This document shows positions 8,392-28,216 of a DNA stretch of 37,373 nucleotides, piece by piece (the stretch's first letter is position 1; each line of letters opens with the position of its first letter). This stretch comes from a virus (taxonomy: Duplodnaviria > Heunggongvirae > Uroviricota > Caudoviricetes). The DNA lies in the IMG/VR virus record IMGVR_UViG_2565956720_000009. The stretch is one strand, 5' to 3'. Under the pieces are notes generated by a model, which saw only the letters and a list, made by a program, of their open reading frames with translations, ran no database searches and was not told where the DNA came from. The translations under genes were made by a program, and so were the position numbers.

Positions 8392-8424
8392 AAATCCCGC
8401 CAATCGGCGGGATTTGTTGTTTAT
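8392..8424. terminator. bidirectional rho-independent terminator between convergent genes
   Basis: Perfect 10-bp stem AAATCCCGCC/GGCGGGATTT with a 4-nt loop followed by GTTGTTTAT; lies between the stop of the dar operon and the stop of the HipA-like gene. Confidence 0.7.
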
Positions 8425-13585: not shown

Positions 13586-13598
13586 TAGTTAACGAGAA

Positions 13599-13626
13599 CC
13601 CCGGCAGCTGCCGGGGTTATTTTTGG
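13599..13626 (+). terminator. rho-independent terminator downstream of the lyz unit
   Basis: Perfect palindrome CCCCGGCAGCTGCCGGGG followed by TTATTTTT; the convergent pro gene stops 4 nt beyond. Confidence 0.65.
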
Positions 13627-25865: not shown

Positions 25866-26014
25866 AGCAATACAACTGAAGGTAGCGCCCGGTACTCAGA
25901 CTGTGCCGTCCATGGAATATTTGAAAAGGGATCCATCCGTACCGGGCGTGTGATGATTCTGACTCAAGTCACTTGTCAGTTGTCAATCATTTAAGATTAA
26001 AAATAATATATTTA

Positions 26015-26575
26015 TTAGTGCATGATGTTTGCCATTTCATAGGCGTCAGCCAGCAACTCCATCTCTGACTTGTTCAACAAGGTGAATTCTTTCTTGCCTC
26101 CTACCACGCCATCTGCATGAACAGGGACCAGCCAAGGGTATTTTTCTCTTACTTCAGCCGGTGCTGCATGCTGGTGGTGCCATCTGCAAAGGGGCAATTG
26201 CTTTTTGTGACAACCCGGCGCGGTACGACCGGAGATATGGTGCAGAGACACCTCTTCAGATATTACTCCATGCATGTAGCAGGCAATGCAGGGGAGAGTG
26301 CCAAGAGCATTGGCGATGGTCCGTTCCTCCGCCGTCGGTGTTCGCCCCTTCAAGCCACGAGATTTTATTTTTACCGCACTTTTCCGCGTTTTGCTGGCTG
26401 GTGGGCGCTCTTTCTGTTTAGCGATACGGCGGTCGATAGAATCCCGCATTTTCTGATATTGCGATTCTCGCCAGGCGGGGTCAGCCAACTTTTCCCGTTG
26501 CCGAGCGATCGCTCGTTCTCTGGCTGCCTTCTGCCACTCGCGGCGCTGTTCAAGTTTTTGTTCGATTGTTTTCAT
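26015..26575 (-). CDS. ref: Ref HNH endonuclease (recombination enhancement function)
   Basis: 186 aa from the ATG at 26575 (MKTIEQKLEQRREWQKAARE...); C-terminal HNH-like Cys/His cluster (CIACYMHG...HHISGR...CHKKQLPLCRWHHQH); matches recalled P1 Ref. Confidence 0.9.
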   Translation of the reverse strand: MKTIEQKLEQRREWQKAARERAIARQREKLADPAWRESQYQKMRDSIDRRIAKQKERPPASKTRKSAVKIKSRGLKGRTPTAEERTIANALGTLPCIACYMHGVISEEVSLHHISGRTAPGCHKKQLPLCRWHHQHAAPAEVREKYPWLVPVHADGVVGGKKEFTLLNKSEMELLADAYEMANIMH

Positions 26576-26580
26576 ATGGC

Positions 26581-26606
26581 AAAAAAAAGGCGGCCTAATG
26601 GCCGCC
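26581..26606 (-). promoter_or_regulatory. GC hairpin plus U8 in the ref leader (terminator-like attenuator)
   Basis: Minus strand GGCGGCC-ATTA-GGCCGCC followed by TTTTTTTT, ending 5 nt before the ref ATG and leaving no room for an SD. Confidence 0.5.
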
Positions 26607-26673
26607 AATGATGTCAAGGAGTGAAGTAATGGCAACGTCTTCGTAGTTGACAAAAACTGCGGCTAAATTATAG

Positions 26674-26690
26674 CAATCAATTAGAGCAAT
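26674..26690 (-). promoter_or_regulatory. C1 operator-like site (Op2-like) upstream of ref, with an adjacent degenerate second copy
   Basis: Reverse complement ATTGCTCTAATTGATTG (14/17 to consensus); next to it ATTGCTATAATT on the same strand, which also contains a TATAAT -10-like hexamer. Confidence 0.55.
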
Positions 26691-26796
26691 GGCAGATATT
26701 TTGTTTATCGCGAATCACATTTTTTCACTTCAGTACCTGTGTGCTATACTCCTTCTTGATTGATTGGATGCGGAATACAAACCCGCTCTTTTGTGC

Positions 26797-26826
26797 AGCC
26801 TGGCTCCTTGCCAGGCTTTTTTTTAT
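26797..26826 (+). terminator. plus-strand rho-independent terminator overlapping the cra 3' end
   Basis: GCCTGGC-TCCTT-GCCAGGC followed by T9 on the plus strand. Confidence 0.5.
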
Positions 26827-27134
26827 TTCATCATGGAAGCTGTTAACGCTTTGGACCTTGCTGAACTGATTGAAAGGGCATTGTTTACCTTACCCAGGAG
26901 TTCGCCAAATTCCCCCATCACTCTAGTAAGCCCGCGCCGCGCTTCCTCCTCCGTTGCATTCATCACAAAATGTTCAGCACTCCGCATGCTTTTAACGGGG
27001 AACGCAACAGATATCGAGTCGATATCAGGCATCCTATCGCTCAACTTTACGGTGACAATGACAGATGGTGACAGAATATTAGTGCTTACAGACAGCACTA
27101 CATATTTTCCGTCGATGTTGAAATCCTTTCTCAT
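26823..27134 (-). CDS. cra: Cra-like small protein (cre-associated), assigned by position
   Basis: 103-aa ORF immediately downstream of cre on the same strand; weak RBS; no motif recognised. Confidence 0.35.
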   Translation of the reverse strand: MRKDFNIDGKYVVLSVSTNILSPSVIVTVKLSDRMPDIDSISVAFPVKSMRSAEHFVMNATEEEARRGLTRVMGEFGELLGKVNNALSISSARSKALTASMMK

Positions 27135-27184: not shown

Positions 27185-28216
27185 CTAATCGCCATCTTCC
27201 AGCAGGCGCACCATTGCCCCTGTTTCACTATCCAGGTTACGGATATAGTTCATGACAATATTTACATTGGTCCAGCCACCAGCTTGCATGATCTCCGGTA
27301 TTGAAACTCCAGCGCGGGCCATATCTCGCGCGGCTCCGACACGGGCACTGTGTCCAGACCAGGCCAGGTATCTCTGACCAGAGTCATCCTTAGCGCCGTA
27401 AATCAATCGATGAGTTGCTTCAAAAATCCCTTCCAGGGCGCGAGTTGATAGCTGGCTGGTGGCAGATGGCGCGGCAACACCATTTTTTCTGACCCGGCAA
27501 AACAGGTAGTTATTAGGATCATCAGCTACACCAGAGACAGAAATCCATCGCTCGACCAGTTTAGTTACCCCCAGGCTAAGTGCCTTCTCTACACCTGCGG
27601 CGCTAACCAGCGTTTTCGTTCTGCCAATATGGATTAACATTCTCCCACCGTCAGTACGTGAGATATCTTTAACCCTGATCCTGGCAATTTCTGCTATACG
27701 TAGCAGGGTATTATAAGCAATCCCAAGAAATGCCAGATTACGTATATCCTGGCAGCGATCGCTATTTTCCATGAGTGAACGAACCTGGTCGAAATCAGTG
27801 CGTTCGAACGCCAATGCCTGTTTTGCACGCTCACCGGCATCAACGTTTTCTTTTCGGATCCGTCGCATGACCAGTGAAACAGCATTGCTGTCACTTGGTC
27901 GTGGCAGCCCGGACCGACGATGAAGCATATTTAGCTGGCCCAAATGTTGCTGGATAGTTTTTACTGCCAGACCGCGCGCCTGAAGATATAGAAGATAATC
28001 GCGAACATCTTCAGGTTCTGCGGGAAACCATTTCCGGTTATTCAACTTGCACCATGCCGCCCACGACCGGCAAACGGACAGAAGCATTTTCCAGGTATGC
28101 TCAGAAAACGCCTGGCGATCCCTGAACATGTCCATCAGGTTCTTGCGAACCTCATCACTCGTTGCATCGACCGGTAATGCAGGCAAATTTTGGTGTACGG
28201 TCAGTAAATTGGACAT
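27185..28216 (-). CDS. cre: Cre tyrosine recombinase
   Basis: 343 aa, MSNLLTVHQNLPALPVDATSDEVRKNLMDMFRDRQAFSEHTWKMLLSVCRSW... is recognisably P1 Cre; cognate loxP lies 418 bp upstream. Confidence 0.97.
   Translation of the reverse strand: MSNLLTVHQNLPALPVDATSDEVRKNLMDMFRDRQAFSEHTWKMLLSVCRSWAAWCKLNNRKWFPAEPEDVRDYLLYLQARGLAVKTIQQHLGQLNMLHRRSGLPRPSDSNAVSLVMRRIRKENVDAGERAKQALAFERTDFDQVRSLMENSDRCQDIRNLAFLGIAYNTLLRIAEIARIRVKDISRTDGGRMLIHIGRTKTLVSAAGVEKALSLGVTKLVERWISVSGVADDPNNYLFCRVRKNGVAAPSATSQLSTRALEGIFEATHRLIYGAKDDSGQRYLAWSGHSARVGAARDMARAGVSIPEIMQAGGWTNVNIVMNYIRNLDSETGAMVRLLEDGD

Follow-up and report, generated by a model that had tools for sequence, protein, structure and literature searches.

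The 37,373-nt stretch of DNA analyzed here (the window) is a phage-plasmid of the P1 family. Over 501 bp around the hairpin described below, it shares 99.8% identity with phiW39 and SJ46, and 96.8% with P1. The region from cre to ref carries the following features, given in the order in which the minus strand is read:

27185-28216, minus strand: cre, coding
26823-27134, minus strand: c8, coding
26667..26695, minus strand: promoter P2ref, with -35 CTGCCA (26695-26690), a 17-nt spacer, and TGc followed by -10 TATAAT (26672-26667)
26674..26690, minus strand: Oref, a single C1 operator, ATTGCTCTAATTGATTG, with 3 mismatches to the consensus; annotated in the P1 record
26607..26660, minus strand: body of the ref leader, non-coding; presumed transcription start near G26660
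26608..26635, minus strand: P1ref, a predicted promoter, with -35 TTGCCA (26635-26630), a 16-nt spacer, and TGa followed by -10 CATCAT (26613-26608)
26606-26589, minus strand: terminator hairpin GGCGGCC-ATTA-GGCCGCC, 7 G-C pairs closed by a tetraloop
26606-26600, minus strand: hairpin 5′ arm, GGCGGCC, by direct reading
26599-26596, minus strand: hairpin loop, ATTA, by direct reading
26595-26589, minus strand: hairpin 3′ arm, GGCCGCC, by direct reading
26588-26581, minus strand: U8 tract (T8), directly 3′ of the stem; a U-rich unstructured stretch 5′ of the ref start
26580-26576, minus strand: spacer GCCAT between U8 and the ref ATG, by direct reading
26015..26575, minus strand: ref, coding for a 186-aa RecA-dependent HNH nuclease (3PLW, PF16786); ATG at 26575-26573

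The product of ref was identified by alignment of its residues 1-186 with residues 1-186 of PDB 3PLW chain A (‘Recombination enhancement function protein’; E=2e-118), and its homologues bear PF16786.

Operator, promoters and terminator upstream of ref

Upstream of ref, the P1 record (AF234172) lists a monovalent C1 operator (Oref), promoter P2ref and a predicted sigma 70 promoter, P1ref; it annotates no terminator there. The leader of the window is 100% identical to that of P1 between approximately the transcription start and the ATG, hairpin included, and one base differs just 3′ of the -10 box.

C1 operators were scored against the 17-bp consensus ATTGCTCTAATAAATTT, with a cut-off of ≤3 mismatches. 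Seven sites were found in the window vs. 0.19 expected. The initial annotation had placed tandem C1 operators upstream of ref, but only ATTGCTCTAATTGATTG (26690-26674) falls within 3 mismatches of the consensus. The candidate second operator, ATTGCTATAATTTAGCC, carries 6 mismatches, is variable or deleted in relatives and is absent from the Salmonella and Klebsiella cassettes described below (lineage B); it is the site of the extended -10 (TGcTATAAT) of P2ref. The operator is not bivalent, in keeping with the term ‘monovalent’ in the P1 record, and the operator count is corrected to one. In that record the old name Op2b denotes Omat, which is located downstream of ref.

The 13-nt imperfect direct repeat ATTGCT(C/A)TAATTG (window 26661-26690) is present as a single copy in L003 (1240-1260) owing to a 13-bp deletion, which takes out the copy supposed to be the second operator; a TCTAAT-type -10 box remains. 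In L021 and L059, foreign sequence is joined within Oref (...GACGACCCC|TAATTGGTTGCTATAAT). The C1 operator is lost from these two loci, so ref may escape C1 control there, and the -10 box, leader, hairpin and ref are still present.

P2ref was recovered by a promoter scan (10/12 matches, with TG) as well as being listed in the P1 record, and its -10 box is retained in nearly all relatives. The hairpin lies ∼55 nt downstream of the presumed P2ref start, that is, in the ref leader. On the minus strand the P2ref -10 box (26672-26667) and a presumed transcription start are followed by the hairpin (26606-26589) and then by the ATG (26575), which is the order expected of an attenuator.

Direct reading of the sequence and a terminator scan agree with the initial annotation that a hairpin followed by U8 lies 5 nt before the ref ATG. 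Its ΔG is ∼-15 kcal/mol, with 7 of 7 pairs G-C and a 4-nt loop. In the strict scan (perfect stem of ≥7 bp, ≥5 GC pairs, loop of 3-8 nt and ≥6 T in the next 8 nt) both strands of the 37-kb window yielded 4 sites, when compared with a mean of 0.03 in 30 Markov simulations; the ref-leader hairpin is thus non-random. Besides the pair in the c8-ref gap, the strict sites are at 8393-8414 and 13598-13617, both on the plus strand. When the hairpin is read on the opposite strand, A8 precedes the stem and AATGATG follows it. The T8 tract is on the ref strand, and the predicted terminator is therefore unidirectional.

Conservation of the leader hairpin with and without ref

Two pattern scans and a protein-guided scan gave >90 P1-type loci (lineage A), which reduce to 22 distinct leaders; a scan of genome contigs contributed only 2 loci. 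The stem is retained in all 22 distinct leaders, with loops ATTA, ATCA, TAAA or GAAA. Four one-sided stem changes all lead to G·U pairs, and one locus has an A·C mismatch. When the 22 leaders were folded together with RNAalifold, the terminator helix alone was retained, with 99.4% of stem cells paired. In the most diverged relatives, no segment of cre-c8-ref is less conserved than the leader body (70-79% identity vs. 87-98% in the flanks), which has 1-nt indels; the stem is intact. No conserved secondary structure apart from the terminator was found in the leader body of the 22 P1-type leaders. A 5′ hairpin predicted for the P1 leader was rejected: it is broken in 5-6 of the 22, was dropped by RNAalifold and did not exceed its shuffle control.

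Across these relatives the T-run is 6-10 nt long, and GCCAT, GACCAT or ACCTT separates it from the ATG. Homopolymer assembly errors may account for part of this length variation; the GACCAT insertion recurs in at least 10 loci.

A protein search recovered Ref-family members down to ∼44% identity, and the upstream DNA of several was taken. At 61-66% Ref identity, the operator, -10 box, leader, terminator and start occur in the same order, with different stems:

Lineage A, the P1-type reference (the window and >90 loci): ATTGCTCTAATTGATTG and TATAAT; hairpin GGCGGCC-ATTA-GGCCGCC with T8; 5 nt to the start
Lineage B, Salmonella and Klebsiella (L187, L188, L194-L196; Ref identity 65-66%): ATTGCTCTAATA.TTAT and GTATAAT, degenerate in L188; hairpin GACGGTC-T(T/A)CG-G(G/A)CCGTC with T7-T8; 10-13 nt to the start
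Lineage C, Pantoea (L189, L274; Ref identity 61%): TTTGCTCTAATAAATTT; hairpin GCCGCC-TCCG-GGCGGC with T7; 101 nt before the called ATG

The operator ATTGCTCTAAT is retained in lineage B, and a close variant, TTTGCTCTAAT, is found in lineage C. Cassettes of both lineages reside in genomic contexts unlike cre-c8-ref-mat. The lineage B leaders are ∼45-50 nt long and differ greatly between copies.

Three of the 7 stem pairs are compensatory across lineages A, B and C (G-C to A-U, C-G to U-A via a U·G intermediate, and G-C to C-G), and pairing is retained in 97.6% of cells. In this positional alignment of about three independent lineages, the covariation score was reached by none of 500 shuffles, and no slid register came close. 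Such changes are the expected signature of a selected helix, here seen across few independent lineages. Ref genes at 45-56% identity have neither a C1 operator nor a leader terminator; the terminator is thus specific to C1-operator cassettes and not universal to ref. The ref homologues of L280-L291 (Ref identity ∼48-51%) carry a perfect or near-perfect 13-bp inverted repeat, TGTTAGAAAATCA-ATTT-TGATTTTCTAACA, ∼50-80 nt upstream. It replaces the C1 operator and the terminator, and may be the operator of a different repressor.

A GC-rich stem, a short loop, an uninterrupted U-tract and a structure kept in evolution are all found here, as expected of an intrinsic terminator. These data indicate that (i) the hairpin and U8 of the ref leader form a genuine transcription terminator that has been conserved in evolution; and (ii) this terminator is under selection in C1-controlled ref cassettes, with compensatory changes among Escherichia, Salmonella, Klebsiella and Pantoea elements.

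The terminator also occurs where ref does not. The gene is missing from at least 11 P1-like loci (L003-L006, L041, L077, L096, L097, L100, L104 and L105), which retain Oref, the -10 box, the leader, the hairpin and T6. T6 is followed by AA, by the stop codon of the convergent ant/KilAC antirepressor gene, and then by icd. In these E. coli and E. albertii plasmids and viral contigs, the immI region abuts the ref leader terminator. The terminator closes what appears to be a unit of 80 nt and would keep antisense transcripts out of ant; by position, this arrangement shows a putative terminator used as a terminator. Since ref-less plasmids retain the promoter, leader and terminator, part of the role of the unit may be independent of ref.

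This retention raises an alternative, in which P2ref and the terminator form a stand-alone, C1-controlled small RNA gene with a trans-acting product of ∼80 nt, and ref merely lies downstream. Invariant leader blocks (CAACTAC, GCCATTA and a C/U-rich CUCC motif before the hairpin) are in keeping with such a gene. However, the leader body is the least conserved segment and has no structure beyond the terminator, and the lineage B leaders are very different from one another. Against Rfam 15, nothing reached the gathering threshold in the whole window, and the sub-threshold matches were generic sRNA models sharing a terminator only. No antisense target of the conserved leader core was found within the window. 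The ref-less retention itself is equally explained by a terminator that protects ant from antisense transcription, or by recent loss of ref. A small RNA gene of this type is very unlikely.

Start codon of ref and transcription routes across the leader

The published Ref protein is 21 kDa and 186 aa long (PMC4330346). As the initial annotation recorded, the six-frame ORF extends upstream to a TTG, at 26653, and the ATG lacks a Shine-Dalgarno (SD) sequence: the best anti-SD duplex over -20..-1 is -1.5 kcal/mol. The duplexes of ref starts in relatives are also weak (-1.9 to -4.0 kcal/mol), and SD-poor starts are apparently not rare in this phage, as judged against a crude background. The frame that is open from the TTG to the ATG in the window, the ATG without SD and an ATGA overlap with an upstream frame could point to a translational element, with Ref made from the TTG (212 aa) or coupled to the upstream frame, and the hairpin acting on translation.

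The comparative data are against both forms of this proposal. Of 84 ref-bearing loci, 20 have the TTG in a different frame from ref; the breaks come from the T-run length (T7-T10), from GCCAT vs. GACCAT spacers and from a GTTGCC-to-GTGCC deletion, and only 6-13 codons are open before the ATG in these 20 loci. The upstream frame of the ATGA overlap is open only from TGA 26616-26614 onward and contains no ATG, GTG or TTG with which coupling could begin. Purified and crystallized Ref is 186 aa, as is the PDB chain, and the N-terminus (MK...) aligns at the ATG or GTG start in the other lineages. The longer protein and coupling are effectively refuted by these comparisons, and one would hardly expect either to hold. 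We assign the ref start codon to ATG 26575, and regard the start as settled in favor of the 186-aa form that had been proposed. Of the earlier suggestion that ref is attenuated and/or translationally coupled to the structure, the first part stands as far as the sequence can tell, by virtue of a terminator between a C1-controlled promoter and the ATG, of the compensatory stems and of a title from 1988 (see below); coupling falls for want of a start codon in the upstream frame.

P1ref would offer another way around the terminator. Its start is predicted at ∼26603-26599, within the 5′ arm or the loop of the hairpin. Its -10 box ends 2 nt before the 5′ arm, and transcripts that start inside the hairpin would be unable to form it. 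In an alternative reading the terminator is an insulator that blocks essentially all transcription from P2ref and cre-c8, and ref mRNA comes from P1ref. The P1 record annotates P1ref as a prediction (-10 at record positions 2039-2044, hairpin 5′ arm at 2046-2052), our scan finds TTGCCA-16-CATCAT with an upstream TG, and TGA.ATCAT, which includes the P1ref -10, is invariant in the 22 P1-type leaders. This motif is, however, also invariant in the ref-less elements, which have no gene for it to serve. The score of P1ref (9/12 matches, with TG) is statistically indistinguishable from chance promoter-like hits (7 in 1.6 kb vs. 2.1 expected), and many leaders have a degraded -35 (TGGCCA, GTGCCA or GAGCCA). 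Lineage B has the terminator but no P1ref -10 box, so that its ref would be reachable solely through the terminator. A C1-free promoter would also leave the C1-dependent induction of ref unexplained. We consider this reading unlikely. A combined proposal is quite unlikely: the promoter, leader and terminator would be a self-standing C1-controlled unit (an ∼80-nt RNA or an insulator) that outlasts ref, and ref of P1 would be expressed mainly from the embedded promoter by transcripts that start inside the stem.

We favor attenuation. The candidate antiterminator pairings (GUUGCCA·UGGCGGC in P1 and ACUGUC·GACGGU in lineage B) are less stable than the terminator fold by 3-9 kcal/mol, occur about as expected by chance and are broken in 6 of the 22 P1-type leaders. 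No conserved or covarying antiterminator helix was found among the alternative pairings examined, one of which relies on 5′ bases that are perhaps not transcribed. On the ref strand the leader has no SD-preceded start codon, and its frames are broken by indels among relatives, which argues against a leader peptide; the leader is not an attenuator of the trp leader-peptide type.

Probable attenuation of ref, earlier work and neighboring units

Attenuator control of ref was already proposed in 1988, and a ref leader attenuator is in that sense known: by its title, the study of Windle, Laufer and Hays (1988; cited via PMC4713147) presents evidence for attenuator-antiterminator control of ref and names a promoter-operator. 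We take the attenuator of that title to be the hairpin described here, since the leader is identical in the window and in P1; as far as the title defines the earlier study, the gene is the same and there is no structural difference. Our additions are modest. Covariation across lineages, and retention of the promoter-terminator unit by ref-less relatives, were seen in genome data that did not exist then. A literature search for mapped transcription starts or terminators of P1 gave nothing relevant, and the main text of PMC8201110 does not mention ref.

Ronayne (2016) described ref as a C1-controlled lytic gene that is 73-fold up after C1 inactivation, to a level lower and slightly later than that of ssb, dmt and kilA; ref is harmful to the host, and H-NS binds ref at CGATAAA (PMC4713147), which corresponds to window positions 26710-26704. 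With a 73-fold induction of ref, termination at the hairpin cannot be complete.

The hairpin and U8 are probably a working Rho-independent terminator in the ref 5′ leader that serves as an attenuator and an insulator. RNA polymerase would come from P2ref, which is repressed by C1 via Oref, or would read through from cre-c8, which lies upstream in the same orientation. Transcripts of c8 would not end at the hairpin that follows this gene, as the T-run of that hairpin is on the opposite strand. Most polymerases would halt 5-13 nt before the start codon and release an ∼80-nt leader RNA, and ref mRNA would be made only by the read-through fraction, which antitermination may raise if the 1988 title is a guide. 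In P1 proper, transcripts from the predicted P1ref that start inside the hairpin may contribute. Translation from ATG 26575 would be SD-independent, on a U/A-rich unstructured stretch. Together with repression by C1, Bof and H-NS, attenuation would keep a toxic RecA-dependent nuclease low and delayed. We infer that termination occurs in vivo, that some polymerases read through and that toxicity is the rationale; most likely, the terminator limits the production of the toxic nuclease Ref. Ref sensitizes lysogens to ciprofloxacin and has been used as a programmable DNA cutter, so the tightness of its gating would matter for phage-antibiotic synergy and for P1-based tools.

At λ pR′-tR′, a 194-nt 6S RNA is made, and RNA polymerase passes the terminator only once it has been modified by Q. 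The ref leader resembles this system in having a strong intrinsic terminator shortly after a phage promoter, with a short RNA, gating the genes beyond. In contrast, no Q- or N-like antiterminator, qut or nut site or put-like RNA was identified for P1 ref, and λ gates a late operon, whereas the P1 leader would gate a single accessory nuclease. Like the trp, his and pyrBI leader-peptide attenuators, the ref leader has an intrinsic terminator downstream of the promoter and ahead of the first codon, but it is without a leader peptide ORF and without a conserved, mutually exclusive antiterminator helix. The P1 C4 and P4 CI RNAs are small regulatory RNAs with their own promoter and terminator. Like them, the ref unit is a short promoter and terminator in a P1-type element, kept without the downstream gene in some relatives; unlike them, it is without a conserved fold, an identified target or an Rfam match. 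C4 itself was not detected in the window at the Rfam gathering threshold.

The c8-ref gap is filled by two putative promoter-to-terminator units, the second of which is short, divergent from P2ref and on the plus strand:

26722-26825, plus strand: second short unit, divergent from P2ref
26722-26750, plus strand: promoter-like TTTTCA-17-TGc-TATACT, ∼45 nt before the terminator
26797-26817, plus strand: strong terminator AGCCTGGC-TCCTT-GCCAGGCT followed by T8, abutting the c8 stop codon

The T-run of this terminator is on the plus strand, so it is not that of c8. The putative RNA of this unit, 70 nt long, would begin near CUCCUUCUUGAUUG (fold z=-2.9), and is unannotated in the P1 record.

An antisense mini-ORF was also seen on the plus strand at 26616-26646 (AAGGAG, 7 nt, then ATG GCA ACG TCT TCG TAG; MATSS*). 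The invariant leader islands CTCC, GCCATTAC and CAACTAC are its SD, start and stop. An SD and a tiny ORF are kept in 20 of the 22 distinct P1-type leaders, with varying peptides; they are present in L187 (MLL*), and absent from L195 and L188. The mini-ORF has no known promoter. A promoter-like sequence, TTGTCA-16-AATAAT (10/12 matches), lies on the plus strand at 25980-26007, at the 3′ end of ref, and adjoins the oppositely oriented Omat of the P1 record. Transcripts from it would be antisense to ref and the leader, and would extend to the plus-strand terminator at 26797-26825.
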